NCBI GenBank assembly: GCA_037917625.1
Contig: JAVCBY010000076.1
Coordinates: 1-29,072, forward strand
Direction: 5' to 3'
Length of the DNA: 29,072 bases
Origin: Thermoproteota archaeon
Lineage (GTDB): Archaea > Korarchaeota > Korarchaeia > Korarchaeales > Korarchaeaceae
Each line of letters starts with the position of its first letter. The first letter of the stretch is position 1. A program made the translations under genes and the position numbers. Under the pieces are notes generated by a model. The model saw nothing but the letters and a program-made list of their open reading frames with translations, was not told the DNA's origin and ran no database searches. Positions 9,722 through 25,674 of this stretch are shown here, one piece after another.

Positions 9722-10546
9722 TCAACTTTTCTCCATCATTCTCTCTATCCAAGGGGCCTCCTTCTTAGTTGAGGGTCCGAATATAGCATCGAGAACCCTT
9801 GTCTGCCCTAGGAACATCAGAAGAGCTGCTATTACAAATATTATGTTCAGGGGCCAATCTACCAGCATCCTCAAGAATCCATCCCTAAAAGGAAGCATCT
9901 GCCTCGTTAAGGCCAAAGGAAGAATAGAAAGCACGTAATCTACTCCAAGTAGGAGAAGACCCATGATGAAGCTAGTTATCGCGAAGGAAAGAGCCCTCAT
10001 GCTCTTGGTCCTCATGTAAATGTAGAGGAACAAGATAACCGAGATCAAACCGAAGAGCTGAGTTAAGCCAATTAATAGGGCGATCATGCCCGATAATACC
10101 TCATTTATCTCGAGGTATGTGAATAACGTGATCCCGTAGAGCCTGTAGATCAGGTAAACTATATAAAAGCTGAAGGAAACTCCTACAGCTGGTAAAATGT
10201 AGAGGATTTTGAGCTCCAGTAAGTAGAAGCTCATCGTGGCTACGAATGCGAAGGAGGTGAGTAATGTTATGAAAGCGTAGAACCAAGAGTTCGCATCGAG
10301 TATGAGCCTCGGTGGTAAAATCGTGAAAGGAAGTCCTATTTTTTCGTAGTATAAGAGGAGGAAGTACTCCGTTACAGCCCAGAGTGCGAATAATAGGAGC
10401 CAAGCTATGGTAGGTCCAGCTCCCCTGAGCCATGAAGTGCCGGAGCTCCTAAGCCTGAGGAGAGTGATGAGGTGATAAATTGAAGTAGCTGCCATCAAGA
10501 GGAGAGAAGTCGTATGAGCGAGAACATAAGGATCGAGTCCCATCAC
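9722..10546 (-). CDS. Seven-transmembrane protein, putative receptor/sensor
   Basis: Seven hydrophobic segments by eye (aa ~7-30, 44-67, 87-110, 114-139, 150-177, 185-213, 228-247) and a short C-tail; 18 bp downstream of the uDENN-like gene. Confidence 0.7.
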   Translation of the reverse strand: MMGLDPYVLAHTTSLLLMAATSIYHLITLLRLRSSGTSWLRGAGPTIAWLLLFALWAVTEYFLLLYYEKIGLPFTILPPRLILDANSWFYAFITLLTSFAFVATMSFYLLELKILYILPAVGVSFSFYIVYLIYRLYGITLFTYLEINEVLSGMIALLIGLTQLFGLISVILFLYIYMRTKSMRALSFAITSFIMGLLLLGVDYVLSILPLALTRQMLPFRDGFLRMLVDWPLNIIFVIAALLMFLGQTRVLDAIFGPSTKKEAPWIERMMEKS

Positions 10547-10564
10547 CTGAATGATACCACCCCC

Positions 10565-11020
10565 TTAGAAGAAACCCCTACCTCTCTCAACGGCCTTCTC
10601 GAAGGCCCCCTTATCCTTCACCTCAGCCTCACCTTCCTTAACCCTATAGGCCGAGAGGAACTTAAAAATATCCGGTAAAAGATCTCTCAATCTCTCTATG
10701 GTCATATCGCTCGGTGGTATGCTCTCCGCTACTCTCAGCATACCGGATTCTATTCTACTGACTTCCCTCTCGTCATCAGTTACAGCTACGAGAGATGCTA
10801 TCCCCTGCCTCGGCTTCTCCCCAGTCAGCCTAACTGTGCAACCCACGAAGTTCAGATTCATCTGCTTGAACTTCACGACCTCGCCCCCGGATGCCGACAT
10901 CGGGAAAGCCTTCACCACCAGCTTCCTCATCTCCTCGCTCAGCTCCCCCGGTGGATAGAAGCCTATTACCGTGAAGCCCTCCTTATCGAGTATCGAGAGG
11001 AGTAACTTCACTACAGCCAT
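10565..11020 (-). CDS. uDENN/longin-like domain protein
   Basis: Pattern LLLSILDKEGFTVIGFYPxxxLSEE..LVVKAFPMSASG...G....R...SLVAVT recalls the uDENN longin of DENND6/Avl9-type proteins; GGAGGG RBS; ends RGFF. Confidence 0.55.
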   Translation of the reverse strand: MAVVKLLLSILDKEGFTVIGFYPPGELSEEMRKLVVKAFPMSASGGEVVKFKQMNLNFVGCTVRLTGEKPRQGIASLVAVTDDEREVSRIESGMLRVAESIPPSDMTIERLRDLLPDIFKFLSAYRVKEGEAEVKDKGAFEKAVERGRGFF

Positions 11021-11033
11021 ATAATCCCTCCCA

Positions 11034-11936
11034 TCAAGTCCCTAAGCTCTCAACATACCTCTCTATGACTTCCATGAGGGCCTCCCTAGCTCTCTCCTTA
11101 TCCTTCACTCTAGCTATGTTATTGAGGACATCAACTAAGAGCGCTTTCACCTTACTCTCAGAAGAGTAGCGAGGGACTAAAGCAGCGCCTATCAAGCCCT
11201 CTCTGATCGCTATTATCAACCTCTTGTCCCTCATCTCTATCGTCTGCGGTATGTCCTTGAGAGATTCCGTCGTGTAATTCCTAACTAGTGAGATGAAGGC
11301 GCTTAGAGTCAAGCTCGTCGTCGAGCTCGTTGAAATTATGGGGGTCCCCTTCTCATCTAAGACGATCAGATCCTCTATCCTGAGCGGATGCGAAACTTCC
11401 TTACCGGTCAGCCTCTCGTAAATCCATGCGAAAGCTTCGAATAAACCGAAGCCCGTTAAAGCGCTGGCCCAGACTATCTGCCAAGTCATCCCCTCCAACT
11501 TCGTCAATTCCAAAGCCTCTATCACTTCCATTACCGTAGCAGCGTTCTCGAGATCCGCCTTGTTCGCGATTATGAGGAGAGGCTTACTCTTCCTTATGAC
11601 GGAGACTATCCTCCAGAGCTCCTCCTTGGCCTCAGGAAACCTCTCCCTATCAGCTGAGTCCAGGACGAAAATGACAGCATCAGCTTTCTCAGCGTACTCC
11701 TCCCACATTCCCCTGAGGGCTTTCTGGCCTCCCAGATCCCATACGTTGAACTCAAGTTCCTTGACCTTGAACTTCTCGAAATTAGCTCCAACCGTCGGTG
11801 CTGTGACTCCTGGCTCCCCTGTGAGTAGGTAATTCAGCATAGTCGTTTTCCCAGCGCCATCTAAGCCCAAAATAACTAGAGTGGTTGGCCTCTTAAAGAG
11901 CCCGAATATACCTGAAACGAGCCTCTGGAACGACAC
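11034..11936 (-). CDS. Arf-family small GTPase fused to a C-terminal longin/roadblock-like domain
   Basis: N-terminal amphipathic helix FQRLVSGIFGLF; G1 GLDGAGKTT, G2 PTVG, Arf signature WDLGGQxxxRxxW, G4 NKAD, G5 ASA. The last ~115 aa begin IEDLIVLDEKGTPII with an apparent beta-beta-alpha-beta-beta-beta-alpha-alpha pattern. Confidence 0.88.
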   Translation of the reverse strand: MSFQRLVSGIFGLFKRPTTLVILGLDGAGKTTMLNYLLTGEPGVTAPTVGANFEKFKVKELEFNVWDLGGQKALRGMWEEYAEKADAVIFVLDSADRERFPEAKEELWRIVSVIRKSKPLLIIANKADLENAATVMEVIEALELTKLEGMTWQIVWASALTGFGLFEAFAWIYERLTGKEVSHPLRIEDLIVLDEKGTPIISTSSTTSLTLSAFISLVRNYTTESLKDIPQTIEMRDKRLIIAIREGLIGAALVPRYSSESKVKALLVDVLNNIARVKDKERAREALMEVIERYVESLGT

Positions 11937-11956
11937 ATGAATACAACTTAACCCTC

Positions 11957-11967
11957 AAAATATAAAT
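11957..11967 (-). promoter_or_regulatory. TATA-box candidate for the leaderless Arf-like gene
   Basis: Minus strand ATTTATATTTT, 21-31 nt upstream of ATG 11936. Confidence 0.45.
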
Positions 11968-11983
11968 CTTCCCTCCTCGCCGA

Positions 11984-12349
11984 TCAATGGAGGAACTCAC
12001 TCAATCTATGCAAGATCTCAACTATCACCTCCGAAAGCTCCGCGTAAGACCCTTTAACGTTCAACATCAGTATTACATCCCTGATCATCCTTCTAATTAA
12101 TACGAAACTTTTTTCCCCGAGGAGGAGGATGCTCGGCTCTTCCTTAAGGTTTAGGTGGGCCGAGATACTCCTCGAGATCTCCGCCATGGCTGAGAATGAT
12201 GCGACAAGGAAATCCTCACTTGGGGATTGTTTGGAATCAGAATATAGGATTATCCCATCTGATGTGAATACCTTCATCGATATTAGGGAGTCTCCGAGTG
12301 AATTCTTTACATCTTCTATGAGGGACTCGAACTCTCCCGACGGTTCCAT
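11984..12349 (-). CDS. Roadblock/LC7 (MglB-like) domain protein
   Basis: 121 aa with N-helix, VFTSDGIILYS hairpin, helix LVASFSAMAEISRSISAHL, three strands and a C-helix: roadblock layout. Confidence 0.8.
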   Translation of the reverse strand: MEPSGEFESLIEDVKNSLGDSLISMKVFTSDGIILYSDSKQSPSEDFLVASFSAMAEISRSISAHLNLKEEPSILLLGEKSFVLIRRMIRDVILMLNVKGSYAELSEVIVEILHRLSEFLH

Positions 12350-12369
12350 CGTCCTCAGGCTCGAAGGGA

Positions 12370-12575: not shown

Positions 12576-13109
12576 ATGAGCGAAATATCTTTCGTAGAGA
12601 GGGTGAACTTCTCCTGGGATGAAAGAGGAAAAGTTATTAGCTTAGGTGGCTTAAGAGCTAATATTTTTAACATTGGGTGCGGGGAAAAGTGCGTAACTCT
12701 TATAGAATTTGAGATGATAGTGCCGTCGAGGGGTCGCATCGAGTTCTGCGGCTCCGATATTCAAAATCTAGGCATTCAAACAGGAAAGACGAGAATTTTG
12801 GTTATACATAAACCATGCGAGGTTAAATTTGGAAGCACTGTTTATAAAATTCCAGAGACGATATTGGAGCTTCCGGGGATGCTTAAGGTTAGAGATGTAG
12901 CTTACAGTTTCCAGGAGCTAGGGAGGGGGGCCAGGATAAGGACTCTCTATAATAAAGAACCTAGAGTATATCTTCTGATAACTCCCACTCAAGCCATACT
13001 CCGCTCGAAGGATGGGAAAAGACTACTCATACCTCCAGAACCTTTGCTAATCGCAACACCCGGAGGTAGCGAGTTAGAAATAGCCGGAGTAACTCTGAAG
13101 CTCCCCTGA
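12576..13109 (+). CDS. Hypothetical protein, predicted beta-rich
   Basis: 177-aa ORF with GGAGG RBS; no recognised motif; visibly more AT-rich than neighbouring genes. Confidence 0.6.
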   Translation: MSEISFVERVNFSWDERGKVISLGGLRANIFNIGCGEKCVTLIEFEMIVPSRGRIEFCGSDIQNLGIQTGKTRILVIHKPCEVKFGSTVYKIPETILELPGMLKVRDVAYSFQELGRGARIRTLYNKEPRVYLLITPTQAILRSKDGKRLLIPPEPLLIATPGGSELEIAGVTLKLP

Positions 13110-13234: not shown

Positions 13235-13533
13235 CTCATAAGAGTGCTCCCCAGAAAAACTAGGAGTTGCTCCAGATGTGGAATTAATGCCCGAAAGGAG
13301 CATCATATGAATGTAAGAAATGTGGGTTGAGGATGGATAGGCAGCTCAATGCTGCCATAAACTCATACCTTCAGATGGAGGGTCTTCCTCCAGGAAGGCT
13401 CCTCGAAGAGTTGATGAAGCTTGGAGCGGGTTCACCCTGAAAGGAGGCTTATGAGGGCTCCAATGAACTCGGGAGGAGCTAGCTGATGAATCCCAGATAT
13501 GTGAGTCTCAAAGACCACATAGCTCAGAACCCC
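13235..13533 (+). pseudogene. tnpB: IS200/IS605-family tnpB C-terminal remnant (Zn ribbon + RuvC-III) with probable right end
   Basis: From 13259: TRSCSRCG; after a frameshift, from 13306: YECKKCGLRMDRQLNAAINSYLQMEG. This is CxxC...CxxC followed by the DRxxNAAxN motif of TnpB. Further frameshifts and stops follow; the 5' part is missing. Confidence 0.8.
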
Positions 13534-14276
13534 TTACTTAACCCGCTCATAACTTCATCAAATAGCTTCCTCTTCAGATCCTCTAAATACCTGATTGAAG
13601 CTCCCGATAGCCCTGGAAACTTTTCGATGAGTAACTTCACCCTATCTAAAGTATCCAATGCAGATCTAATCCTCTCCCTATCTTCCTCCTTCAAATCCGT
13701 GAAGAATTCCCTCAAGGCGACTCTTATATTACCTATCTCCTTGACCACTCTCTCAGGAGATCCTTCCTGAGGTATATGTTTAACTAGCAACTCTATAGTT
13801 GATGCTAGAAGTTCTGGAGGCAGCAACTCGACCTTCCCTACCATACTCTTGAGCTGTCCTGAGAGGAATCCCGCGGAGAGGCAGTCCTCACAGTACTTCA
13901 CTATCTCTATTAAGGTATTTATGTACATCTCCAACTCGCTTAAAGATCTCACTTTGATCTCCTTGAGCCTCTTCATTATCTCATTGACTATAGGCTGGTA
14001 TCTGTTCTTCAGAATGGGGGAGACTACGGAAGGATCTATCGCTTGGCTGTAAAGCACTTCCTCCTTAGAAAGCTTATCTATGAGTGCTGATATATCCTTC
14101 CTGATTGAGTTAATCTCTTCTAGGATTTCCCCGTCTAAGAACCGTAGGGATGCCTTTAGCAGCCTCTCCGTGAATTTATACTCATTTACAATATCTTCTA
14201 TTACTTCATACATTGAGATCTCAAATAGAGAGGCTTCAAATCTCTCAAACTCACCTTCGAAGAATTCCTCTAGCAT
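13524..14276 (-). CDS. Hypothetical alpha-helical/coiled-coil protein
   Basis: E/L/K-rich helical ORF; start moved to ATG 14276 (MLEEFF), ~27 nt from the shared TATA box. Confidence 0.75.
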   Translation of the reverse strand: MLEEFFEGEFERFEASLFEISMYEVIEDIVNEYKFTERLLKASLRFLDGEILEEINSIRKDISALIDKLSKEEVLYSQAIDPSVVSPILKNRYQPIVNEIMKRLKEIKVRSLSELEMYINTLIEIVKYCEDCLSAGFLSGQLKSMVGKVELLPPELLASTIELLVKHIPQEGSPERVVKEIGNIRVALREFFTDLKEEDRERIRSALDTLDRVKLLIEKFPGLSGASIRYLEDLKRKLFDEVMSGLSKGF

Positions 14277-14293
14277 ATAGGTGAAACGGGTCT

Positions 14294-14313
14294 GCAATTT
14301 TTATAAAATTTGC
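14294..14313. promoter_or_regulatory. Bidirectional palindromic TATA box
   Basis: GCAATTTTTATAAAATTTGC (one mismatched pair; perfect core TTTTATAAAA 14299-14308), centred ~28 nt from both ATG 14276 (-) and ATG 14332 (+). Confidence 0.65.
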
Positions 14314-14331
14314 CTGGCTCGAATGGATTGT

Positions 14332-15909
14332 ATGGAGCATGAGAACCCATGGGAGGCGCTGAGGGCCTCGCTGCTGGAAGCTGGATACAGCTTAGATAAG
14401 ATAGACAAGCTTGAGAGCTTGATGAAGAAGGATGAACTATTTCCCTTGCTTGAGAAGATACTAGAAAAGGTGAGGAAGCTGGAGGAGATCTCTTCAGGGG
14501 TTGAAAGGGAAATAGGGAGTGGGGGGGATATATCGAGCAGAGCCAGTTTACTATTCCAGTCCATGAAGGGGGTATTGATAAGTCTGATAGGGGATCCAGC
14601 TTATATGAGGCCCTTTCTCAGGGATAAGGGGAAAGTGAAGGAGGTAAGGAGGATCCTAGAGGTCACACTTGAGGAAGCTAGTTCTCTGGAGAGGGAGCTC
14701 GTCACTAGGGTGAATGCATATATACGTGAGAAAGGGCTGAGTGTAGAGGAACTGAGGAGCTATGAGGAGATACCTGCTGCTTTGAGCTTCTTGAGGATCT
14801 TAAAGAAATCCGAGGTTCATAAAGAGGTCCAGGAGCAGAAAGTCGAGCCTAAAGAGGAGCAGAGGAAATTAAAGGAGGAAGCTATAGCATCTCTAAATGA
14901 AGCATTTGAGAAATTGAGATCAATCGAAGAAGAGCTAGATCTTATGGGAGTGAGATATGAGAGGCTATCGCATTATTTAGAATTGCGAGAAAGGTTTATT
15001 GAGAGGGTTAAAGAGGCCGAGGAAGGGATTCTGCGGAAATATTTGAGGAACATCACCTCCAGGCTCGCAGAAGTTGAGAAAGATTCAAGGAAGCTTATTC
15101 AAATCTCCCAAAAGATGATAGATCTGAAGGCTAGTATTGAGGAGATGAAGGGAGATCTCTTAGAGAGGATGGAAGGGATAGCAGAGCTTGGAAAGTTCAA
15201 GGAGATAATCCCCTATATAGGATTGGATTTTCCCAGGATCCCTCTCCTCATAAGATCGAGGGTACACATAGAATCCCTGAGGAGGGAAGTTGAGAGGCTA
15301 AACAAGATAAGTTCCCTGATCAAGAGCGTTATAGATGAGCTGGAATACATGCCGAAGGATGCCAAACTCGATATAAGCAAGCTCTCATTAGATTCAACGG
15401 AGTCCTTCTTGGAGAGCCTCAACAACTGCCTCAGGGCCTCTAGGCTCTCTTACGGGATGCCCGAGACTGTCAGCTATACTGGGATAATGAGTGAAGTATT
15501 GGAACTATATCCGAAATGGAGAGAAAAAATAATATCACTTCTTAGGGAAAGAGGGGAAATATCTCTCCAAGACTTGAAGTTCATTCCCGGGAGCTGGAGG
15601 CCATGGGTCCTCAGGAACTTAGCTGATGAGGGTATCGTAGTCATCAACGAAGATAAGGTGGCCATGAGGATAATCCCCGAGGATATGAGGAAATTAGAGA
15701 TGGAGATAGAGGTAATAGAGGATATGTTAGCAGATTTAGGGGCAATGTTCCCCAATTTAGATGATATGAGCGTGAAGAAGATCAGGGAAGATTTTGAGAG
15801 GGCGAAGTCCTTGTTCATGATGGGGAGGATCTCGGAGTACAGGGAGCTAGTATCTGAGCTCAGATCGAGGGTAAGGGAGGTCAAGATGCAGCTGGGTGTG
15901 AAGGGATGA
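14332..15909 (+). CDS. Long coiled-coil protein with a winged-helix-like module near the C-terminus
   Basis: Extended heptad-rich sequence; segment WREKIISLLRERGEISLQDL...WVLRNLADEGIVVINEDKV has a wHTH pattern; no Walker A; start moved to MEHENPW; ATGA overlap with the GTPase. Confidence 0.75.
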   Translation: MEHENPWEALRASLLEAGYSLDKIDKLESLMKKDELFPLLEKILEKVRKLEEISSGVEREIGSGGDISSRASLLFQSMKGVLISLIGDPAYMRPFLRDKGKVKEVRRILEVTLEEASSLERELVTRVNAYIREKGLSVEELRSYEEIPAALSFLRILKKSEVHKEVQEQKVEPKEEQRKLKEEAIASLNEAFEKLRSIEEELDLMGVRYERLSHYLELRERFIERVKEAEEGILRKYLRNITSRLAEVEKDSRKLIQISQKMIDLKASIEEMKGDLLERMEGIAELGKFKEIIPYIGLDFPRIPLLIRSRVHIESLRREVERLNKISSLIKSVIDELEYMPKDAKLDISKLSLDSTESFLESLNNCLRASRLSYGMPETVSYTGIMSEVLELYPKWREKIISLLRERGEISLQDLKFIPGSWRPWVLRNLADEGIVVINEDKVAMRIIPEDMRKLEMEIEVIEDMLADLGAMFPNLDDMSVKKIREDFERAKSLFMMGRISEYRELVSELRSRVREVKMQLGVKG

Positions 15910-16511
15910 GGAAGATCTCCCTAGCTATAATAGGACCTCATCAAGCAGGAAAGAGCACTTTCATAAGGAAGTTAGATCCCTCAGCCGTGAGGATGGACTA
16001 TGAGAAGGGCACTCTATCCACTACAGTCGGCTTCGACTACGGAATAATCTTCTGGGACGCTACGAAGGATGAGCTTTACCCTAAGGAGAGCATAGAGGAT
16101 GTGGATCCATTCGATGAGATATGGAAGGTCACGCTTACTGGAACCCCTGGGCAGATAGCCTTCTCTTACGTCAGGAAGGCTTTAGTGAAGGGTAAGGATG
16201 GTGTCATAATGATAGTAGATAGCGCCCAACCCGTTCAACTGGTCTACGCTCTCGGCCAGTATCAGGAAGCGAAGGAAGTGCTACCTCCGGGATTCCCTTT
16301 CCTCATCCTAGCTAATAAGCAAGATCTACCTGACGCTAAGTCCCCGGATGTGATTAAGAGTCTCTTGGGGATGGATGCGGAGGTGATCCCCATCTCGGCT
16401 TTACGAGGGGATGGAGTTCAGGAGGCATTCATTCACTTCCTCAAAGTTGTAAGAGCTGACATAATGAGCAGATCCATTCAATCATATGCCGAGGCTAAGG
16501 TTAGAGCTTAA
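15906..16511 (+). CDS. MglA-like (COG2229-type) small GTPase
   Basis: G1 GPHQAGKST, G2 TTVGFDYG, G3 GTPGQ, G4 NKQD, G5 ISA. Confidence 0.85.
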   Translation: MRKISLAIIGPHQAGKSTFIRKLDPSAVRMDYEKGTLSTTVGFDYGIIFWDATKDELYPKESIEDVDPFDEIWKVTLTGTPGQIAFSYVRKALVKGKDGVIMIVDSAQPVQLVYALGQYQEAKEVLPPGFPFLILANKQDLPDAKSPDVIKSLLGMDAEVIPISALRGDGVQEAFIHFLKVVRADIMSRSIQSYAEAKVRA

Positions 16512-16515
16512 AAAA

Positions 16516-16746
16516 TTATGATTTTTTCATTTTAACTTCTATCCTCTTCCTCAAGTAATCCCTCCTCATCGTTACCTCATATCCCTCCCACCTTATCGCT
16601 CCCTTGGGCTCCCTGACCCAGGTAGGCCAGACGTAATCCTTCATCTCCAAAGTGTACTCCTCCTCCAACCCGCTGTAGGACTTCCTCAGCTTCCCATTCA
16701 GGTTCACTATCTCCCCACATGACAGGATGTACTCATACATTGGCAT
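16516..16746 (-). CDS. Small hypothetical protein
   Basis: 76 aa with host-like codon usage, convergent with the GTPase; no recognised motif. Confidence 0.55.
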   Translation of the reverse strand: MPMYEYILSCGEIVNLNGKLRKSYSGLEEEYTLEMKDYVWPTWVREPKGAIRWEGYEVTMRRDYLRKRIEVKMKKS

Positions 16747-16925
16747 GATTCTAATGGGAATGAGAGCAAGAAAAAGGGATCCATTAGATTATAATAAGGG
16801 AGTAATCCGAAGATCCTACTTATTCTTCAACTCCGAGAGGCCAATGGGAGAGTACCGGTTCGCATTGAGCCATGCCTCTCTAGTAGTAAAAATAGTCCTG
16901 AAGGGTGCATACGGAGATCCCCTTA

Positions 16926-17087
16926 GGGTCCTGGACTATGCAGTCTTTAAGACTAAATGAGCCCTTGGGATTCATCAGTGCCTATCTAGAGCTCGTAGAT
17001 CATCATAAAATCCTCAGTCAGCTTAAGCATCTCCAATCCTTCATGGCCCTCCGAGGGGCTTCGAGGATCGATCACTCCATCCGGAGG
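16926..17087 (-). mobile_element. Second, more decayed copy of the tnpB 3' end/right-end region, inverted relative to 13370-13533
   Basis: The reverse complement shares, in the same order, GATGGAG, TCCTC, GAAG..CCTCG, ATGAAG..TTGGAG, an exact CTGATGAATCCCA (13483-13495 vs 16978-16966), AGTCTxAAAGAC and CATAG..CAGxACCC. Confidence 0.65.
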
Positions 17088-17379
17088 CTTAAACTTAGCC
17101 CTCCCGGGTATTTACTATCTCAAATTTGGAGCTGCAGCATTTTCCTTCGTTATCTAAATTTCATATATTTTTAAATTATTGACGGTCATTAGGTAAAAAT
17201 TCTTAACAAAATAAACATGAAAAAGTAAATATAATGAGGTAAATGATACGATAGGAGTGCAGATTGATTCAGGAACGAGTTGGGGATGGTGGCGATTCAA
17301 AGCTCCATCAACATTTTTATTATTCCTCACTGGGGCAACTAAATGTCCACCCATGCACGGGGTGGAGGTGATCTTGATC

Positions 17380-18702: not shown

Positions 18703-18706
18703 GAGG

Positions 18707-18985
18707 ATGTACTCAGATCCCAGGTTAGCTTTCAAGCTCGGGGAGTTCATCCAATCTCTTGAGGACAAGCTCATCTACTCGAAGCCCAAAGTGGGGGATC
18801 TAGTGAGGGAGCTTCAAAGACTGAACGAGATGCTCGAGGAGGAGGACAGGGAGATACCTAACTCCTGGATCGATTACCTCAAGCAGAACTACGGAAGCCT
18901 CGATGAACTAGATCCTGATGATAGAAAAGCGTTAGTTCAGGATTTAGAAGGGATTAAGCAATCAATAACGAATAAGATCAAGTGA
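18707..18985 (+). CDS. Small helical hypothetical protein
   Basis: 92 aa, 4 bp downstream of the previous gene, host-like codons. Confidence 0.7.
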   Translation: MYSDPRLAFKLGEFIQSLEDKLIYSKPKVGDLVRELQRLNEMLEEEDREIPNSWIDYLKQNYGSLDELDPDDRKALVQDLEGIKQSITNKIK

Positions 18986-19894
18986 CTACCTCCCCAAGAG
19001 CTGGGAAATCTCCCTTATTTTTCTTTGAGATGTGAAGCCTATTGAGTAAAGTAGAGCCTCGAGGACAGCTCTCCTGCATATCTCAATGTATATTATGTTA
19101 TCCGAGAGGAGCCTGGGCCTCTCCTCCATGCCAACTCCTAACCTCGCGTAAAGGTCCTTGAGCCTCTCTATGAACTTGAGCATCCCCTCCATGTTGAATG
19201 TCTTGAAGTAGAACCTCGCGCACCCCCTAGAGGGCACGCTCCTGAAGAACCTCCCGCTCTGAAAGGTCTTCAAGAATTGAGATGGATACCTATAGAGCCA
19301 ATATGGAATTTCCCAACCGTCATAAAATTCCCTCTTCGTTGGAGCCCCGAAGAGGAGTAGTATGACTCCGAACTGAGATAATAGATAGACCCTCCTCTCC
19401 CTCTTATTTACGGAGATATCAGAAACCTCGATATTGAGGATCCTCCTAGATAGATCTATGATGTGAGAGAGCTGGAAGTCATCATCGTACCTCAAGGATA
19501 TTGTTGCATTTCCCTTCCCTACCTTGAACTTCGAGCTGCTAGAAACAGCATAACCTATGAAGGAAGCTGCAGCCTCTAGATCGAAATTTGGCTTGAGGAA
19601 CCTCCTTATGCCCATACCCTCGATAGATCGGAGGACGTCCCATAGATCTATCCTAGCTAGTTCAGCTAGTTTCAAAACCAAGGCGAGGGGCATAGGTGAG
19701 CTAGGCGTCGACATTATCTTCATTACTTTAACTAATGGAATGCCAGTCTCCTTCGCTATATTTATGTAATTACTCACCTTAAGAGACCTAACTATGAGCT
19801 CCTGCCTCATCTCAAGGCTGAGCTTCACAGGGTAGAGAGGCGGTGCTTTATGAAAGCTCAGCTCGATCCTATCGAGATTCCCATCCGAAGCCAT
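18986..19894 (-). CDS. HTH + degenerate (probably inactive) LAGLIDADG endonuclease-like protein
   Basis: XRE-like HTH (NIAKETGIPLVKVMKI...MPLALVLKLA), then AASFIGYAVSS, EIPYWLY...FLKTFQSG, LKDLYARLGV, YIEI, SIGFTSQRK: the intein-type DOD scaffold without the catalytic DG. Start moved to MASDG. Confidence 0.6.
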   Translation of the reverse strand: MASDGNLDRIELSFHKAPPLYPVKLSLEMRQELIVRSLKVSNYINIAKETGIPLVKVMKIMSTPSSPMPLALVLKLAELARIDLWDVLRSIEGMGIRRFLKPNFDLEAAASFIGYAVSSSSKFKVGKGNATISLRYDDDFQLSHIIDLSRRILNIEVSDISVNKRERRVYLLSQFGVILLLFGAPTKREFYDGWEIPYWLYRYPSQFLKTFQSGRFFRSVPSRGCARFYFKTFNMEGMLKFIERLKDLYARLGVGMEERPRLLSDNIIYIEICRRAVLEALLYSIGFTSQRKIREISQLLGR

Positions 19895-19976
19895 TCGGGT
19901 GGAATTACTGTAACTGAATAAAAATATTATCTCCAAATTTCGGATGGGATTCCTGCAAAATTTCCAAAGTTACCGT

Positions 19977-19989
19977 AAAAAAGAAAAAA
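19977..19989 (-). terminator. Oligo-T terminator candidate of the ftsZ operon
   Basis: Minus strand TTTTTTCTTTTTT a few nt after the stop at 19997. Confidence 0.55.
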
Positions 19990-19996
19990 GGATGGT

Positions 19997-20965
19997 CTAT
20001 CTAGAAGCTGAGATCCCAAGCAGGCCTTCCAGGGTTGGGGACCTCACGCCTGATGCTATTATAGTTATCCTAGGCTCGTTAAGATCCTCAGCTATCCTGA
20101 ATCCCCAGTAGACCCTCTCGAGGAGATAATCCTCAGTCAGGAGCTTAGTAGCAGAGCCAGCTTCCTCCAGACTCGTATTGGGAGTCGCTTGCAGGTAGAC
20201 TAATGCGGAGTCAGCTTCCTTTACCTCAGCATCAAGTAATATATTCCCTAGGGCTGTCTTAGCAGCATCCGCGACCCTTCCACCGACTCCAAGCCCTACA
20301 GCACCCAGGCCTGCTTCCCTAACCACAGCCTCGAAGTCAGCGAAGCTTATGCTTACGACATGGGGCATGTAGAATAGGTTAGCGAGGTCCGAGATGACGG
20401 CAGCCAGTAATGAGTCAGCGTACTTGAACGCGTATTGAACCTGTATGTACCCGATCTTCCTGCTCAGTATATCGTTTAAGTTCACTATAGTGAGATCAGC
20501 TACTCCCATTATCCTCGAGAGGCCGTATCTAGCGTTATTTACCTTCCCCAATCCCTCCCAGGAGAAGGGGAAGGAGACTAAGGCTATCCTTATCACATCC
20601 GGGAACCTGTCCCTAACTGCGGAGAGTATGGGTGCAACCCCTCCTGAAGCAGTCCCTCCTCCTAGCCCTCCAGTCACTATGAGAACGTTCGGCCTACCTA
20701 TAGCAGCCATTATCCTATCCAGATCCGCCATTATGGCCCTCTCGCCCACATTTGGATTGCCCCCACTACCGAAACCGCCAGTCACAGTTTCCCCGACGAG
20801 AAGCTTGGTATCTGACTTTATCGCTTTTAGGTGGTTGGCCTCAGTATGTATGGCTATCGTCTTTACAGGCGCGCCTACTTCCTTAAGTCTGTTTAAAGTA
20901 TTGCAACCAGCTCCTCCTACTCCCACAACAGTCATCGTCACTCTAGCCTCAGGAGCCCCTGACAT
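19997..20965 (-). CDS. ftsZ: FtsZ/tubulin-family protein, paralog E (5th in operon)
   Basis: GVGGAGCN, AIHTE, GFGSGG, T4 GGGTASG, PFSWEG, T7 SISFAD. Confidence 0.88.
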   Translation of the reverse strand: MSGAPEARVTMTVVGVGGAGCNTLNRLKEVGAPVKTIAIHTEANHLKAIKSDTKLLVGETVTGGFGSGGNPNVGERAIMADLDRIMAAIGRPNVLIVTGGLGGGTASGGVAPILSAVRDRFPDVIRIALVSFPFSWEGLGKVNNARYGLSRIMGVADLTIVNLNDILSRKIGYIQVQYAFKYADSLLAAVISDLANLFYMPHVVSISFADFEAVVREAGLGAVGLGVGGRVADAAKTALGNILLDAEVKEADSALVYLQATPNTSLEEAGSATKLLTEDYLLERVYWGFRIAEDLNEPRITIIASGVRSPTLEGLLGISASR

Positions 20966-20968
20966 CGC

Positions 20969-21958
20969 TTAACCACCTCCCATAGAGCTTAAGAAGTCCT
21001 CCACCATCCTAGACTTGACGCCGAATGTGTAAACAGTGACCTTAGGCGTGGTCATCTCTATGCTCGGCTTGAGGCCGAAGTATACCTCAGGTATGCCTAA
21101 ATTCGTCGTTAGGACATCCTGAACGTACGTCATCCCCTCGACTGAGACAGCTGTCTCAGCTGACTCCAATATACCAACTACACCCTTAGCTCCCTTATGA
21201 TCGGCATCGCCAAAGGGATCGACTAAGGAGGACTCGAATGCCTCTCTTGCAGTCCTCCCTTCCCCGAATCCAGCGTAACCCAATCCAGATCCCTTGGCAA
21301 TTTCCTTCATTACTGCGAAGTCAACGTTCTGCATTCCAGGGAGTGGTGAGAGGTTCTGAAGGGAAGCCAGGCCCTTTACAACGTTGAAGAGCCTATCATC
21401 CATCATCTTATACGCTCTAGTCAGCGGAACATTCGTGAACTTCCTCTTCAGGACATCATTGAACGCGACCCAGGTGACGTCAGATAGGTCTATTATCTCA
21501 GATAGGCCGTACTTAGCGTTATTTATCCTCACCTCTCCCTCGCTCGCGAATGGTATAACAACGTAACTTATAGTTAGAGCATTCGGTAAGCTCTCCTTTA
21601 TAGTCTCAGCCAACGTCACTATTCCTCCTGTTCCCGCACCTCCTCCTAAGCCAGCTAAGAGTACTATGAGCTCCCTATCGCTCAGCATAGATATTAGGTT
21701 CTCTTTAACAGTCTCCATAGCTTTCCTCCCATTCTCTATAGTTCTAGCGCTCCTCCCACCGAGGAAGGATTCACCCGCGAGCACCTTATGATCGGCTTTC
21801 GTCGCATTAAGAGAGGCTGCATCAGTATTCACTGCTATTAACTTCGCATCCGTGAAGCCGGTCCTCTTGATGTTCGTTATCATATTGCAACCTGCTCCTC
21901 CTATGCCCACTACAGCCAGCTTGAGCTGGGCAGTGGGCTCTCCTCTCCTCCAACTCAT
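20969..21958 (-). CDS. ftsZ: FtsZ/tubulin-family protein, paralog D (4th)
   Basis: GIGGAGCN, AVNTD, T4 GGGAGTG, PFASEG, T7 NVDFAV. Confidence 0.88.
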   Translation of the reverse strand: MSWRRGEPTAQLKLAVVGIGGAGCNMITNIKRTGFTDAKLIAVNTDAASLNATKADHKVLAGESFLGGRSARTIENGRKAMETVKENLISMLSDRELIVLLAGLGGGAGTGGIVTLAETIKESLPNALTISYVVIPFASEGEVRINNAKYGLSEIIDLSDVTWVAFNDVLKRKFTNVPLTRAYKMMDDRLFNVVKGLASLQNLSPLPGMQNVDFAVMKEIAKGSGLGYAGFGEGRTAREAFESSLVDPFGDADHKGAKGVVGILESAETAVSVEGMTYVQDVLTTNLGIPEVYFGLKPSIEMTTPKVTVYTFGVKSRMVEDFLSSMGGG

Positions 21959-22191
21959 TTCCTCCTCACCTCCACAACACCTTTAACTAAAACAACATCA
22001 CCAACAGCTAAAATATTTGATGGGGGGAGTGTGTACTCCAAGATTTTCTCACTTCCTCCCCTAGCTATCTTCACCCTTACGAGGAGGCTAGCCTTTCCCT
22101 CTTGATCTATGACGACATCCTCCACTACTCCTACCCTCCTCCCTGAGCTATCTATCACCTCTTTCCCCACTACTTCCTCCCTCTTGATCAT
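21955..22191 (-). CDS. PRC-barrel domain protein (CdpB-like)
   Basis: VVGKEVIDSSGRRVGVVEDVVID...LPPSNILAVGDVVLV; start ATG 22191 overlaps the upstream stop (ATGA) and its own stop overlaps the next ATG. Confidence 0.85.
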   Translation of the reverse strand: MIKREEVVGKEVIDSSGRRVGVVEDVVIDQEGKASLLVRVKIARGGSEKILEYTLPPSNILAVGDVVLVKGVVEVRRK

Positions 22192-23186
22192 GATATCCCT
22201 CCTTGTAGCCACCTGTCGACGAGCTCTGATCTGACTCCAGTCGCTAAGAGCATTATCTTAGGCTCATAAAGCTTCCAGTTCGGCTTTATTCCCCAGAATA
22301 TGCTCATTATGTTGTAATCACTCGAAAGTGTCTGAGGTATCCTGTCGAGCTCCCTCATCACTAGCTGCGATTGGTTGCCCTCAACGTAAACTATAGCTCC
22401 CTTCGCGTTCCTTATATCTGCTTCGCTATAATTTGCAGCTATTGAATTTCTGAAAGCCTCCATCGCATTTCTTCCTCTACCTATCCCTATGAATCCCAAG
22501 CCGGAGTTCCTGACGAGGACTTCCATATTGCTGAAATCTATGTTGACGAGGCCTGGTTGCGGTACTATATCTTGCAGGCCAACTATAGAATCTATTATGT
22601 CGACTAAGAGCTTATCCATCTCCCTGAAAGCTTGGCTAACTGGTAAGTTGCCTGCTCTCTCCTTGAGCAGATCATTAGCATTGACTACAGTCATATCAGC
22701 AGAGTCGAGCATTCTGGAGAGGCCCCACTGGGCATTCCTTATTCTAGTTGGCCCCTCCGATGTGAAAGGTAGAGTCACTATCCCTATAACTATCTTGTCA
22801 GGGAACTTCTCCTTAATAGCTTCAGCTATTGTCGGCCCAGCTCCCGTCCCCGTGCCACCTCCCATGCCCGCAGTTATCATTATGAGCTCCTTGTCCCTCA
22901 GCGGGGTTAATATCTTGTCCATATCTTGCTCTGCTATCATCCTGCCTAGCTCCGGCGAACCCGCAGCTCCCCTTCCTTTGTGAGCGCCCTCCCCGATCAG
23001 TATCTTTATGTCAGCGCTTATCCTCTGCAGAGTAGGAGCATCCGTATTTACTGCGACAGTTGGAACCCTGACGCCATATCTCTTCACGTTGTTCACAGTA
23101 TTATTACCGCATCCCCCAACGCCGACTAACACCATCTTGAGGGCGGAGAGCTCAGAAGCCCTAGCTAACTCAGACCTAGACATCAT
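22188..23186 (-). CDS. ftsZ: FtsZ/tubulin-family protein, paralog C (3rd)
   Basis: GVGGCGNN, AVNTD, GRGAAG, canonical T4 GGGTGTG, PFTSEG, T7 NIDFSN. Confidence 0.92.
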   Translation of the reverse strand: MMSRSELARASELSALKMVLVGVGGCGNNTVNNVKRYGVRVPTVAVNTDAPTLQRISADIKILIGEGAHKGRGAAGSPELGRMIAEQDMDKILTPLRDKELIMITAGMGGGTGTGAGPTIAEAIKEKFPDKIVIGIVTLPFTSEGPTRIRNAQWGLSRMLDSADMTVVNANDLLKERAGNLPVSQAFREMDKLLVDIIDSIVGLQDIVPQPGLVNIDFSNMEVLVRNSGLGFIGIGRGRNAMEAFRNSIAANYSEADIRNAKGAIVYVEGNQSQLVMRELDRIPQTLSSDYNIMSIFWGIKPNWKLYEPKIMLLATGVRSELVDRWLQGGIS

Positions 23187-23197
23187 AGAGGCTCACC

Positions 23198-23512
23198 TCA
23201 TAGCGCACTTCCCATGGATATCATCTTAGACTCTAATATCCTCATAAATGTTCTCCTTAACTCCTCCATATCTGTTACACTTCCTCCCTTCGCCTCAACG
23301 TATTCTTTGACGGCTAATAAGGGAGGTATGTATGGGAATTTCTCCTGCCTCGCGAACCATGCTAGCGAGACCTCGCCTTTATTTTCATCTAAGTACCTGC
23401 TGATCAGCTCAGCAACTGATACCCTAGGCTCAGGTTGAACAGGAGGTTGAGCGGGTTGAACAGGAGGTTGAGATTCCTCCTCCTTCTCCTTCTTCCTACG
23501 GAACATATCCAT
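23198..23512 (-). CDS. Small hypothetical protein with a Pro/Gln linker inside the ftsZ operon
   Basis: GGAGGGGG RBS; MDMFRRKK N-terminus, QPPVQP repeat linker, small helical C-domain; gaps of 9 and 11 bp to its neighbours. Confidence 0.75.
   Translation of the reverse strand: MDMFRRKKEKEEESQPPVQPAQPPVQPEPRVSVAELISRYLDENKGEVSLAWFARQEKFPYIPPLLAVKEYVEAKGGSVTDMEELRRTFMRILESKMISMGSAL
23433..23472. repeat. Intragenic tandem duplication, 19 bp identical at 21-bp period
   Basis: GGTTGAACAGGAGGTTGAG at 23433-23451 and 23454-23472, encoding QPPVQP twice. Confidence 0.85.
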
Positions 23513-23521
23513 CCCCCCTCC

Positions 23522-24550
23522 TCATAAACCTAAATCAGCTAAAAAATCATCTACATATTGGGATCTCACTTGAGTCACGAGTAGGTTGACCCTCACGTCA
23601 GGGTACTCGAAGGTAGGCCTGACTCCCATGAACACAGTAGGGATCCTGTACCTCCTGCTCAATATATCAGTGGCTTCCCTCATCTGATCCACCCTCAGAT
23701 CAACGGATTTGCCCTCGAAATATATTATCGCTCCCTTCGCTTCAGTTAAATCAGTTTTAGCATAATCATCTTGCAGGGCGTCATCGAAGGCCTCGAATAT
23801 GTAGCGACCTCTCCCCACCCCTATGAATCCCAAGCCGGATTGATAGGATATCCTCGAGAAATTACTGAGATCTACGTTAACGTAACCGGGTCCCGTCTCA
23901 GCACTCTGCATCTTAACGAGAGCATAGATGCTCCTCTCTATCTTCCTATTAACCATTGAGAATGCATAATTTAGGTCTACAGCTCTTGCTTTCTCCATAG
24001 CTAGATCGTTAGCATTAACTACAGTCACATCAGAGACTTCTAAGGTCTCCCTCAATGAGAATTGGGCATTCCTCTTCCTCTCCTCCCCCTCCTCCCTCAT
24101 GGGTAATGTAACTACTGAGATCTTTATTGCCTCCTTATTCCTCAAGCCGATCTCCCTCATGAGCACTGGGAGGCCTCCTGAACCGGTTCCACCTCCCATC
24201 CCAGCTATACCTATGACTATATCTACGTTCTCATCCAAGGCTCTCAATACGCTCTCTATATCCTCCTCCATTGCCTCCCTTCCTATATCAGGTACTCCTT
24301 GAGCTCCTCTCCCCTTGTGCGTGTACCTGCCTATCAGGACTTTCTCATCCGCATCCGTCTTCTTTAGTACAGCGGAGTCCGTATTGACAGCTATCGTCTT
24401 TACGTTCTTCGGGAACTTCTTGTAGAATGCGCTTATTATATTATTGCCACATCCCCCAATACCTACTATATTTATCTTAGCCTCTGTAGCTTTCTCTACA
24501 CTCTCCAACCCCCTATCAACGGTCCTCCTCCTAACAGCCATCTCCATCAC
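23522..24550 (-). CDS. ftsZ: FtsZ/tubulin-family protein, paralog B (2nd)
   Basis: GIGGCGNN, AVNTD, GRGAQG, canonical T4 GGGTGSG, T7 NVDLSN. Confidence 0.92.
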   Translation of the reverse strand: MMEMAVRRRTVDRGLESVEKATEAKINIVGIGGCGNNIISAFYKKFPKNVKTIAVNTDSAVLKKTDADEKVLIGRYTHKGRGAQGVPDIGREAMEEDIESVLRALDENVDIVIGIAGMGGGTGSGGLPVLMREIGLRNKEAIKISVVTLPMREEGEERKRNAQFSLRETLEVSDVTVVNANDLAMEKARAVDLNYAFSMVNRKIERSIYALVKMQSAETGPGYVNVDLSNFSRISYQSGLGFIGVGRGRYIFEAFDDALQDDYAKTDLTEAKGAIIYFEGKSVDLRVDQMREATDILSRRYRIPTVFMGVRPTFEYPDVRVNLLVTQVRSQYVDDFLADLGL

Positions 24551-25560
24551 TCCCTTAAGAGCTCCTTAACATCACCTATCATATCCCTCACGAATGGAGA
24601 ATCGACTCCAGTAGCGTAAACGAAGGACTCCGGTGTCCTGAGCATTGGGTTCAACCTAGCCCCAAATGAAATTTTCTCAACATCGTACTTCTCCGTTATG
24701 AGCCTCGGCCCATCTATGACCTCCGAGAGGCTCGCAGTTGGAGGTATCTTGATATAGAGGAGATAGCCTGAGGCTGATGTAGGAGCAGCATCCAGCAACC
24801 TAGTATCTATAGCGCTCTCAACAGCTTTCCTAACGCTCCTATGGGAGCCTATGCCTATGAACCCTATCCCGGATCTCTCTATCATCCCCCTAAGATCTGG
24901 GAAGTCGAGCCTCTGCAACGTATCCCTGGGATCCAGCATCTCGACTATGTAATTTATGGCCATCTTCAGTATATTGTCCATCCTTGAGTAAGCGACTTGC
25001 GCAGGCATCTCACCGAATTTCTCCAAGAGGACATCGTTCATGTTCACTACGACACTATCGTTCACGACGACTATTTCTCTCAATCCAGATTGGACGTTCT
25101 TCATCTTCGTCTGCCCTTCGTACCTGAAGGGGATCGTTACAATGGATATCATAGCTGGGGCCTTATCTCCATACTGATCCCTTATCGCTCTCAGTAGATA
25201 TGGCAATCCGCCGCTCCCCATACCTCCGCCCAATCCAGCTACAGCTATGAGGAGATCGCAGATATCCAGAGTCCTTATAACTTTATCTAAATCCTCATCT
25301 ACTGCTTTCTGAGCTAAGCTTATATCTCCTCCGCTTCCCCTTCCCCTCAGCGTATTCTCCCCAACTTGAATTATCTCATGGGCCTTAACTTGTCTCAGAG
25401 CATTTAGATCAGAGTCCAAAGCGACTAATTTCGCCAATTCCATTCCAGATCTTGCTAAGCTATCGATGGCCTTTATCCCTGCTCCCCCAACACCTAAAAC
25501 AGTAATCTTAGTTGGTATTTCCTCAAATCTAGTTGGAAGACCGGCCCTACTGCTAGCCAT
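24547..25560 (-). CDS. ftsZ: FtsZ/tubulin-family protein, paralog A (1st)
   Basis: GVGGAGIK, ALDSD, GRGSGG, T4 GGGMGSG, PFRYEG, T7 RLDFPD; GGAGGT RBS 8 nt before ATG 25560 (alternative GTG 25566). Confidence 0.88.
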   Translation of the reverse strand: MASSRAGLPTRFEEIPTKITVLGVGGAGIKAIDSLARSGMELAKLVALDSDLNALRQVKAHEIIQVGENTLRGRGSGGDISLAQKAVDEDLDKVIRTLDICDLLIAVAGLGGGMGSGGLPYLLRAIRDQYGDKAPAMISIVTIPFRYEGQTKMKNVQSGLREIVVVNDSVVVNMNDVLLEKFGEMPAQVAYSRMDNILKMAINYIVEMLDPRDTLQRLDFPDLRGMIERSGIGFIGIGSHRSVRKAVESAIDTRLLDAAPTSASGYLLYIKIPPTASLSEVIDGPRLITEKYDVEKISFGARLNPMLRTPESFVYATGVDSPFVRDMIGDVKELLRE

Positions 25561-25621
25561 CCTCACTTACCTCCCATTTTATAGGACGAAAACTCTGGCC
25601 CATCACTTCACTCCCTCTCAA

Positions 25622-25674
25622 TGGTTGGTGATCTCACACCAACCACCTAAAAAGCGACTGAAACTTTTATATAT
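25622..25674 (-). promoter_or_regulatory. ftsZ-operon promoter candidate with a 9-bp inverted repeat at the predicted transcript start
   Basis: Minus strand ATATATAAAA at 25674-25665; TGGTTGGTG-N6-CACCAACCA at 25622-25645. Confidence 0.5.

Follow-up and report, generated by a model that had tools for sequence, protein, structure and literature searches.

The closest described counterpart of the locus studied here is a seven-gene cluster of Ca. Korarchaeum cryptofilum that contains a PRC-barrel gene and five ftsZ paralogs (PMC3132758; bioRxiv 10.1101/2023.03.28.534543, both citing Elkins et al. 2008). Citations since 2008 have presented it as the first sign that PRC barrels work together with FtsZ and, in the text of these sources that was accessible, it is mentioned more than analyzed. 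PRC-barrel proteins are also reported in FtsZ-based archaeal division (bioRxiv 10.1101/2023.03.28.534543). The same organism encodes Kcr_0908, an Arf-related GTPase (ArfR) that is confined to a shallow korarchaeal branch and probably came from an Asgard donor (bioRxiv 10.1101/2024.02.28.582541). A single Group 4 MglA, the gene not being specified, was counted in the sole korarchaeal genome then known (PMC4316618). MglA and its roadblock GTPase-activating protein MglB form a polarity regulator (PMC9481161), and longin and roadblock domains are platforms for small GTPases (PMC3747258). Here we analyze a contig of a korarchaeal Thermoproteota archaeon (JAVCBY010000076.1, assembly GCA_037917625.1; 29,072 nucleotides, in the following called the window) in which five tandem FtsZ-like genes, an ArfR gene and a gene for an MglA-like GTPase share a 16-kb interval (9722–25674). 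Our reading, to which we assign a probability of roughly 55%, treats this interval as a mosaic in which three modules evolve separately: an ArfR operon, an MglA-like module, and an FtsZ-like operon with the companion genes g20–g22, the last two of which would build and position a filament.

Three modules in one interval

The window spans an entire contig of a 1.22-Mb assembly that is 84% complete, and one of its genes has a 66%-identical homologue labelled "Candidatus Korarchaeum sp." at source. As seen from the listing of open reading frames (ORFs) and from Pfam, the interval is flanked by ilvD (8021–9685, minus strand) and iscU/iscS (26222–27957, minus strand) and comprises at least five transcription units in opposed orientations. 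Its products are two small GTPases, one of them of the Arf family, and five Tubulin/FtsZ-family proteins encoded in tandem, together with PRC-barrel, roadblock-fold, longin-fold, polytopic membrane, GIFT-like membrane and degenerate helix-turn-helix (HTH)-LAGLIDADG proteins. A first, sequence-only reading of this DNA had counted seven GTPase genes of three classes between ilvD and the isc genes. Pfam and NCBIfam confirm all seven (Arf, small GTPase, five Tubulin/FtsZ), and the classes have to be redrawn: the two small GTPases represent two families of the Ras-like P-loop superfamily, to which the tubulin/FtsZ fold is unrelated. Its statement that recognizable metabolic genes are missing also held, none of the 20 scanned ORFs of the interval having a match to a metabolic Pfam family. 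Five of the seven tubulin-family genes of the genome lie here, and the Arf and Ras models match just two genes genome-wide, both in the interval, so that the clustering is above chance. The codon usage of 19 locus genes is host-like (z between −2.03 and +2.04 relative to 626 long ORFs from the same genome). We found no flanking direct (att-like) repeats in a repeat search of the window, which returned only shared FtsZ coding motifs, no tRNA genes or Rfam families in the window, and no integrase-type Pfam matches among the ORFs of the interval. These data agree with the proposed host-like codon usage and native character of the locus.

Our survey covered 43 genomes of the phylum, among them the one that holds the window, with cut-offs of E ≤ 1e-62 for cluster-type FtsZ-like genes, E ≤ 1e-15 for ArfR and E ≤ 1e-10 for the MglA-like GTPase g17; several absences in this survey come from fragmented assemblies. 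The FtsZ-like cluster was found in 9 of the 43 genomes (eight among the 21 of the window's genus, one among the five of another genus), ArfR in 15, all from the window's genus, and g17 in 24 from three genera, one of these being a weak partial match. ArfR and the cluster occur together in six genomes and ArfR without the cluster in nine. Three fragmented genomes have the cluster without a detected ArfR (G014, G004 and G048; 96, 80 and 71% complete). Using tblastn with all window proteins, we recovered the whole arrangement in four close relatives besides the window (88–97% identity in ArfR); these five genomes represent one shallow subclade and are counted as one observation. Six more distant congeneric loci keep ilvD with g10, g11 and ArfR and, in the five whose contig reaches, also g13 and g15–g17. 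Their genomes have two to three FtsZ genes, and none of the genes from 16516–25566 was found in these loci by tblastn. The differing genome distributions, together with a second copy of the ArfR cassette described below, show that the ArfR and FtsZ-like modules have independent histories. The sequence-only reading had made the Arf-like GTPase part of one integrated system, and the genomes that carry ArfR without the cluster (9/43) or the cluster without a detected ArfR (3/43) contradict this. The first of the two observations that it had named as speaking against it, a scatter or separate loss of sub-modules in related genomes, is what the six congeneric loci display.

The MglA-like module behaves differently. 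A metagenome scan with paralog c of the FtsZ-like operon gave 14 loci, among them L074 (the same as L068/L069), which is 58–68% identical to the window in paralogs c, d and e. The co-directional, tightly packed L074 array runs c, PRC, d, e and continues with homologues of g20 (25% identity), g21 (37–38%) and g22 (33%), followed by those of g15 (21%, E 4e-7), g16 (25%) and g17 (41–42%). The window has the same genes, partly inverted. This shows that the neighborhood of the FtsZ-like operon, g20–g22 and the MglA-like module survived deep divergence and inversions. No homologue of ArfR, g10 or g11 was found in the 9.4-kb array. The idea that small GTPases are tied to the FtsZ-like filament keeps some support in the case of the MglA-like module, which is linked to the cluster again in L074, and fails for the separable Arf-like GTPase.

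The FtsZ-like operon and its companions

The FtsZ-like operon occupies the minus strand from 25566 down to 19997 in the order a, b, g27, c, PRC, d, e, with overlaps or gaps of at most 11 bases. Its five tubulin-family genes are paralog a (24547–25566, 339 amino acids, Pfam Tubulin 2e-29), the first gene, b (23522–24550, 342 amino acids, 3e-35), c (22188–23186, 332 amino acids, 5e-41), d (20969–21958, 329 amino acids, 6e-29) and e (19997–20965, 322 amino acids, 8e-28, with an additional FtsZ_C match). All five match Pfam Tubulin at 98–141 bits against a cut-off of 33. Paralogs c and a, the two of the five that were scanned with the equivalog model TIGR00065, reached 233.2 and 177.9 bits, both below the cut-off of 295.2. 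The paralogs are 29–41% identical to one another. Recent tandem duplication is ruled out by this degree of mutual identity and by the presence of orthologues of a–d in genus g3 and in further metagenomic lineages.

In our sequence tree, the five paralogs form one clade that is distinct from the canonical FtsZ pair of the genome. This quick IQ-TREE calculation used 65 rows, namely 25 short paralogs and 40 canonical sequences (the genome's own 2, a further 20 taken from related genomes, and 18 selected by hand out of 108 canonical hits), and all 25 short paralogs fell on one side of a branch that separates them from the 40 canonical sequences (Shimodaira–Hasegawa-like approximate likelihood ratio test, SH-aLRT, 96). 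Clades a and d include the orthologue from G048, whose e gene is cut by the contig end and so has no row, and b and d are sisters. Orthology is 1:1 for a, b, c and e in a fixed order; the gene at the fourth position of the most diverged lineages scores nearer to c than to d. Moreover, all five proteins stop within a few residues of the C-terminal domain (322–342 amino acids versus 383 and 423 for the canonical pair) and, judged by their sequences, are without a C-terminal linker or tail.

The T7 synergy loop of canonical FtsZ reads N-x-D-x-x-D. In E. coli FtsZ, D209 and D212 of this loop activate hydrolysis in the subunit below, and β-tubulin differs from α-tubulin at the equivalent residue. 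We found NxDxxD in 20 of 20 canonical rows, and the full motif in none of the five paralogs, whose loops read RLDFPD (a), NVDLSN (b), NIDFSN (c), NVDFAV (d) and SISFAD (e). These changes are specific for the paralog type: NxDxSN occurs in 12/12 c and 5/5 b sequences, NVDFAV in 3/3 d, R-x-D-F-x-D in 3/3 a and SISFAD in 2/2 e. Additionally, the same position-specific signatures appear in 12 further genes from L068 and L072–L075 (four metagenomic lineages), including the three-paralog form. The glycine-rich nucleotide-binding loops are kept in all five with small changes, T4 being GGGMGSG in a and GGGTASG in e. By analogy with the E. coli and tubulin loops, the paralog-specific T7 changes suggest a heteropolymer with few GTP-hydrolyzing interfaces.

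Two small proteins are encoded within the operon. The product of g27 (23198–23512, 104 amino acids, no Pfam match) carries a conserved F-x-RKK motif at the N-terminus and a helical domain at the C-terminus, and its gene sits between b and c in all five of the five-paralog lineages seen. Inside g27, at 23433–23472, two perfect 19-nt copies spaced 21 nt (two bases between) encode a repeated proline/glutamine-rich linker of lineage-variable length. The PRC barrel (21955–22212, 85 amino acids; Pfam PRC 2.5e-8, 34.2 bits versus 21.2) has 1pm3 as its closest PDB sequence (E 4.7e-6).

The operon is found in several forms. G048 keeps the order a–b–g27–c–PRC–d–e with a g22 homologue on the other side, and L072 and L075 have the five-paralog form at 47–52% identity, the genes upstream in L075 being unrelated. 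L071 and L073 have a three-paralog form (c, d-like, e; L073:9941–13138 and L071:10001–12060) in which the T7 signatures are kept; a tblastn search with the window's PRC protein detected no PRC barrel between these paralog genes. In L073 a g21 homologue follows the last FtsZ-like gene, and the flanks are glycosyl hydrolases and endonuclease III.

Elsewhere the genome encodes a canonical divisome, with SepF, a pair of longer FtsZ genes and three further PRC genes, so that the cluster adds to the standard divisome and does not replace it. One of the canonical FtsZ genes (G000:C44:11652–12560; locus L003:898–2049, minus strand) is without the N-terminal glycine-rich T1 region in this assembly. Its Pfam match begins at model position 42 and no upstream frame supplies the remainder, which may be an assembly fault or a real truncation. 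Two of the other PRC matches (G000:C18:9–206 and G000:C109:500–697) contain one in-frame TGA each.

Downstream of the operon lie the companions. The plus-strand gene g20 (17257–18702; the true start is probably downstream of 17257) encodes a 481-residue protein with a membrane anchor, a putative GIFT/ABC_transp_aux-like domain and a helical stalk. It has one hydrophobic segment at each terminus, as found with the crude Kyte–Doolittle scan (19-residue windows) used throughout. Its Pfam matches remain below threshold (ABC_transp_aux 32.2 bits versus 34.7; IFT52_GIFT 16.9 versus 27.2, E 0.0035), and weak matches to the same two families reappear in the 25%-identical L074 orthologue. The following g21 (18707–18985, plus strand) encodes a 92-residue helical protein, and a homologue of it lies downstream of the last FtsZ-like gene in three of the three lineages with a visible flank, namely the window, L074 and L073. 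Between the MglA-like module and g20, the minus strand holds g18 (16516–16746), a 76-residue ORF with no Pfam match whose orthologues are 75–99% identical in six loci, all from genomes that carry the FtsZ-like cluster.

The product of g22 (18986–19936, minus strand, 316 amino acids; probably starting at 19894) combines an HTH with a degenerate LAGLIDADG-like part. The protein itself is without a Pfam match, and its ESM Atlas feature matches lead to LAGLIDADG_3 clusters (0.93–0.94). A five-row profile searched against 1.84 billion representatives gave 103 proteins, 39 of which were aligned with g22; three near-identical orthologues, four short fragments and the weaker matches below P0184 were left out of the alignment. 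Pfam LAGLIDADG_3 matches 34 of these 40 rows, several of which have HTH domains. The D of the GDG motif is present in 37 of the 40 rows and is S, N or C in g22 and its two nearest relatives. In the latter, the second motif DD[ED]G has become QSGR, and g22 carries QSGR too, with its row shifted by four columns. These features make a DNA-binding regulator the probable role of g22. A g22 homologue stands beside the FtsZ-like cluster in G048 and also in L074.

The ArfR operon and the MglA-like module

On the minus strand, g13, ArfR, g11 and g10 follow each other in this order with intergenic gaps of 13–47 bases. The ArfR gene (g12, 11034–11936) encodes a 300-residue Arf-family GTPase of the ArfR type with a C-terminal domain of ~120 amino acids. 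Pfam Arf matches it at E 4e-49 (166.8 bits against a cut-off of 22.3), and its closest PDB sequences are eukaryotic Arf1 and Arl1 (E ~1e-37, covering residues 2–206 at most). Hallmarks of Arf proteins are the WDxGGQ G3/interswitch signature and an N-terminal amphipathic helix, and in the ArfR sequence WDLGGQ and a hydrophobic/basic N-terminus can be read. The C-terminal extension is kept in 10 of 10 aligned korarchaeal homologues. A profile search for stand-alone copies gave only two short proteins, probably fragments of ArfR, and hhalign against the roadblock (g13) and longin (g11) families returned probabilities below 1%. In the ESM Atlas, residues 182–300 gave only leads below 0.9, among them one cluster with Fuz_longin_1 on 34% of its members.

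A Pfam scan at E 10 and an NCBIfam scan at E 0.1 gave nothing useful for g10, g11, g13, g14, g18, g22 and g27. For two of the putative ArfR partners we report predicted folds. The 121-residue g13 protein (11984–12349, minus strand), the first of the operon, has an AlphaFold2 model with a mean predicted local distance difference test score (pLDDT) of 89 and the order α-β-β-α-β-β-β-α of a Roadblock/LC7 fold. At E ≤ 0.001 Foldseek returned 159 PDB matches, the best of which are Asgard roadblocks, MglB and LAMTOR (template modelling score, TM, 0.7–0.79), and hhalign joins the g13 family at 94% probability to a Pfam-positive Robl_LC7 protein that is a GTPase neighbor in a sister genus (G022). Pfam Robl_LC7 itself leaves g13 unmatched even at E 10 and has no match anywhere in the genome at E 0.1. 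The 151-residue g11 protein (10565–11020, minus strand) is modelled with a longin-like domain (fold order β-β-α-β-β-β-α) at a pLDDT of 78. At the top of its Foldseek PDB matches stand longin domains from GATOR1, SEA and FLCN, as well as a Lokiarchaeal Roadblock-Longin protein (E 1.8e-5, TMq 0.63). There were 14 PDB matches at E ≤ 0.001, and the 13 listed all belong to GTPase-regulator complexes of the GATOR1/SEA/FLCN type or to the Lokiarchaeal longin. Among 5.77 billion proteins the g11 family has 16 members, the only one named by organism being from Ca. Korarchaeum sp. A complex prediction for ArfR with the g11 longin scored 0.00 against a mark of 0.32 and carries no weight either way. The last gene, g10 (9722–10546, minus strand), encodes a 274-residue polytopic membrane protein with at least six hydrophobic 19-residue windows and no Pfam match. 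Its place beside ArfR and the longin gene is kept in 12 related loci, among them two of the three paralogous ArfR/longin cassettes.

These cassettes are second copies of ArfR and g11 in three genomes, with 47–50% identity in ArfR, and g10 is included in the two whose contig reaches. We read the ArfR operon as a putative membrane-bound small-GTPase switch with its own longin and roadblock regulators. At locus L020 of a congener (G007:C110; 3630–4526 and 5541–7247), the ArfR orthologue contains one in-frame TGA, and a second g16-like gene (568 amino acids) is present as well.

The MglA-like module centers on g17 (15906–16511, plus strand), which encodes a 201-residue small GTPase matched by Pfam Arf (2e-8) and NCBIfam small_GTP (8.6e-14). 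It aligns with the PDB MglA 3t12 at E 3e-7 over residues 63–184, with similar E-values to Arf-like proteins. The G3 region LTGTPGQ aligns with LYTVPGQ of T. thermophilus MglA; it reads PGQ and is without the aspartate. The stop of g16 (14281–15909, plus strand) overlaps the g17 start by four bases. Its 542-residue product is a charged helical, coiled-coil-like partner of the GTPase, and the true start is probably near 14323, as orthologue alignments begin at residue 17. In divergent orientation to g16 lies g15 (13524–14297, minus strand), encoding a 257-residue helical protein with 33% charged residues; its homologue in L074 directly precedes those of g16 and g17. For g15, g16 and g21, "coiled-coil" describes a charged/aliphatic composition only. 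The g16–g17 pair is kept in L074 and in another genus (G022, G051 and G049). In G022 a Robl_LC7 gene (Pfam E 6e-15) directly follows the g17 homologue; in the window g17 is 3.5 kb away from the only gene with a roadblock fold. The MglA-like module (g15, g16, g17 and a roadblock partner) is older than the ArfR operon; its g16–g17 pair is present in another genus.

Several gene labels of the sequence-only reading can be judged from these data. Its roadblock gene is g13, recognized by the predicted fold and by hhalign and not by a Pfam match of its own, and its longin-like gene is g11, the predicted fold of which matches solved longin domains. The "dead nuclease" label fits g22, a member of the LAGLIDADG family in which the acidic residues of both motifs are replaced. 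For g10, called a seven-transmembrane protein, the polytopic character is retained and the count that we see is at least six segments from a crude scan.

Some further genes were noted. The plus-strand g14 (12576–13109), between the ArfR operon and g15, encodes a 177-residue protein without a Pfam match, and its orthologues were found within the genus only. At 5181–6668 (minus strand) the window holds a 495-residue ORF with eight hydrophobic segments and no Pfam match, which congeners keep at 74–75% identity, likewise beside the PfpI and cupin genes. One congener that has no FtsZ-like cluster shows its ArfR and MglA-like modules (L014:14550–19815 and L040:1–9200; G001:C9) followed by genes without a recognized family and by a type II/IV secretion-type ATPase (T2SSE, E 6e-21). 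Beyond this ATPase lie genes for large surface-type proteins and then, ~12 kb on, a second copy of the MglA-like GTPase.

Readings of the locus and known systems

The mosaic reading would work as follows. The five paralogs would be non-redundant subunits of one heteropolymer, in which the T7 loops of b, c and d would be unable to trigger GTP hydrolysis in the neighboring subunit, while those of a and e are altered and that of a, perhaps also that of e, would be able to do so. With few hydrolyzing interfaces, the product may be a stable cytoskeletal filament with slow turnover, serving cell shape or as a scaffold, and not a treadmilling Z ring. The PRC barrel and g27 may be adaptors that replace the tail-mediated binding of SepF, and g22 would regulate transcription. 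As the most likely candidate for positioning, g17 would act with g13, g15 and g16 as a polarity switch in the manner of MglA/MglB. The ArfR operon would be a neighbor of this filament system and not a part of it, forming a separate membrane-associated switch with longin, roadblock and polytopic partners.

Several points weigh against this reading. Only two lineages with a visible flank show the MglA-like module linked to the cluster, 16 genomes have g17 without the cluster, and one genome (63% complete) has the cluster without g17. Fragmentation of the assemblies may explain why ArfR was not detected in G014, G004 and G048. The roles given to the PRC barrel, g27, g20 and g21 are guesses, the heteropolymer and the T7 effect lean on the analogy with E. 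coli FtsZ D209/D212 and α/β-tubulin, both taken from general knowledge, and the tree is a quick search on a hand-picked canonical sample.

Three other explanations were considered. The whole interval could be a single integrated system, with both GTPases, Arf-like and MglA-like, in control of a multi-subunit FtsZ-family filament. The arrangement from ArfR to the FtsZ-like genes is indeed collinear in four close relatives besides the window, both Ras-superfamily GTPases of the genome lie in the interval, and the MglA-like module is linked to the cluster in L074 as well. However, the collinear genomes amount to the single observation noted above, at least five transcription units run in opposed orientations, the L074 array is without an ArfR, longin or seven-transmembrane homologue, and the 9/43 and 3/43 genomes that separate ArfR from the cluster speak for distinct histories, so that we consider one integrated system unlikely. 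If, at the other extreme, the FtsZ-like cluster and its LAGLIDADG-like gene were a laterally moving cassette and the adjacency to the GTPases an accidental insertion, this would account for the patchy spread (9/43 genomes; 8/21 in one genus, 1/5 in another), for the flanks that vary by lineage (L073 with glycosyl hydrolases and endonuclease III, L075 with unrelated upstream genes) and for a homing-endonuclease-derived gene that accompanies the cluster on different sides. We nevertheless regard such a cassette as improbable, because all cluster genes have host-like codon usage, neither flanking direct repeats nor a tRNA gene nor an integrase-type Pfam match was found, the LAGLIDADG motifs are degenerate, and accessory genes together with the MglA-like module accompany the cluster in two diverged lineages.

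The remaining alternative concerns the filament itself. The paralogs might be condition-specific or subfunctionalized isoforms, each forming its own homopolymer, like the haloarchaeal CetZ paralogs. All five keep the glycine-rich nucleotide-binding loops, and multi-member FtsZ-like families with roles in cell shape are known (PMC10606840). But three paralogs are without the last T7 aspartate and one is without the first two T7 positions, which suggests that their homopolymers would be poor GTPases, and every five-paralog lineage seen retains all five genes in unchanged order within one tight operon; we give the isoform explanation little credence. Taking the mosaic reading further, we propose for some Korarchaeia a five-subunit FtsZ-family heteropolymer with a catalytic a (perhaps also e) and the non-catalytic b, c and d, a split resembling that of tubulin; it would be anchored by the PRC barrel and a small adaptor in place of SepF, and positioned by the MglA-like GTPase together with roadblock and coiled-coil-like partners. 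This full proposal is tentative and we ourselves find it rather doubtful. The fixed order, the missing tails and the T7 losses turn the cluster into a testable model of a hetero-oligomeric FtsZ-family filament, and the recurring neighborhood makes the MglA-like module a candidate regulator of the FtsZ-like operon. That ArfR is separable, having its own operon and an additional fused domain, corrects the idea of one system, and the operon offers candidate partners of ArfR.

We found no paper on the locus as a whole by title or abstract, one of the searches having matched more papers than could be screened. With K. cryptofilum the window shares the five tandem FtsZ-family genes, the PRC barrel and the small ORF; a close relative, G012, has all of them at 88–98% identity. 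In the accessible parts of the papers on that cluster it is only mentioned, and we found nothing there on T7 signatures, absent tails, a single clade or three-paralog forms, nor on g20–g22 or the MglA-like linkage. Within the accessible literature, the single clade, the missing tails and the paralog-specific T7 changes were not found in print. ArfR likewise agrees with the described Arf-family GTPase of a shallow korarchaeal branch, here 15 of 43 genomes and one genus. It differs in that the korarchaeal protein has the conserved ~120-residue C-terminal domain, the roadblock/longin/polytopic operon and the duplicated cassette, and nothing on the korarchaeal arfR neighborhood or the extension was found in the main text of the describing paper (bioRxiv 10.1101/2024.02.28.582541; its supplements were outside the search). 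At three non-korarchaeal ArfR loci, tblastn with all window proteins (E 0.1) found none of the partner genes. A scan of genome contigs with ArfR returned only six loci. Two non-korarchaeal ArfR loci (L026:8243–11964 and L028:468–3401, one record being labelled Bathyarchaeia and the other Promethearchaeati) have a common arrangement of a 249-residue protein (coiled-coil-like in L028), ArfR, an ORF of ~100 amino acids and Kae1/TsaD, and their ArfR has 179 amino acids and is without the C-terminal extension.

The regulators can be compared with bacterial and eukaryotic counterparts. Like MglA–MglB, the MglA-like module has a G3 of the PGQ type without aspartate and a Roadblock-fold partner; in contrast, the g17 match is weak (PDB E 3e-7, with similar values for Arf-like proteins) and the conserved partner is a coiled-coil-like protein of ~540 amino acids. 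The models of g11 and g13 resemble the longins of GATOR1/SEA/FLCN and the roadblocks of LAMTOR and MglB, respectively, and unlike the components of Ragulator, GATOR1, FLCN and SRX they are without sequence-level membership, the likeness coming from predicted folds. WhiA-type regulators are degenerate LAGLIDADG proteins. As in these, the homing-endonuclease fold of g22 is without its catalytic acids, is joined to an HTH and stands beside cell-division genes; it differs by the N-terminal position of the HTH and by having no WhiA Pfam match.

The FtsZ-like operon itself shares the tubulin/FtsZ fold and a PRC-barrel partner with the FtsZ1/FtsZ2–SepF–CdpB divisome. It differs in that the canonical set is encoded elsewhere in this genome, the paralogs are tail-less with altered T7 loops, and the two that were scanned (c and a) fall below the TIGR00065 cut-off. 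α/β-Tubulin and BtubA/B form polymers of paralogous subunits in which one subunit type is without the catalytic T7 residue and only some interfaces hydrolyze GTP. Compared with these, the korarchaeal operon encodes five subunit types, which are of the FtsZ type by their position in the tree and whose co-assembly is putative. Should the proposed model be true, it would represent an independent invention, outside the Asgard archaea, of a eukaryote-style combination of a small-GTPase switch with a hetero-oligomeric tubulin-fold filament.

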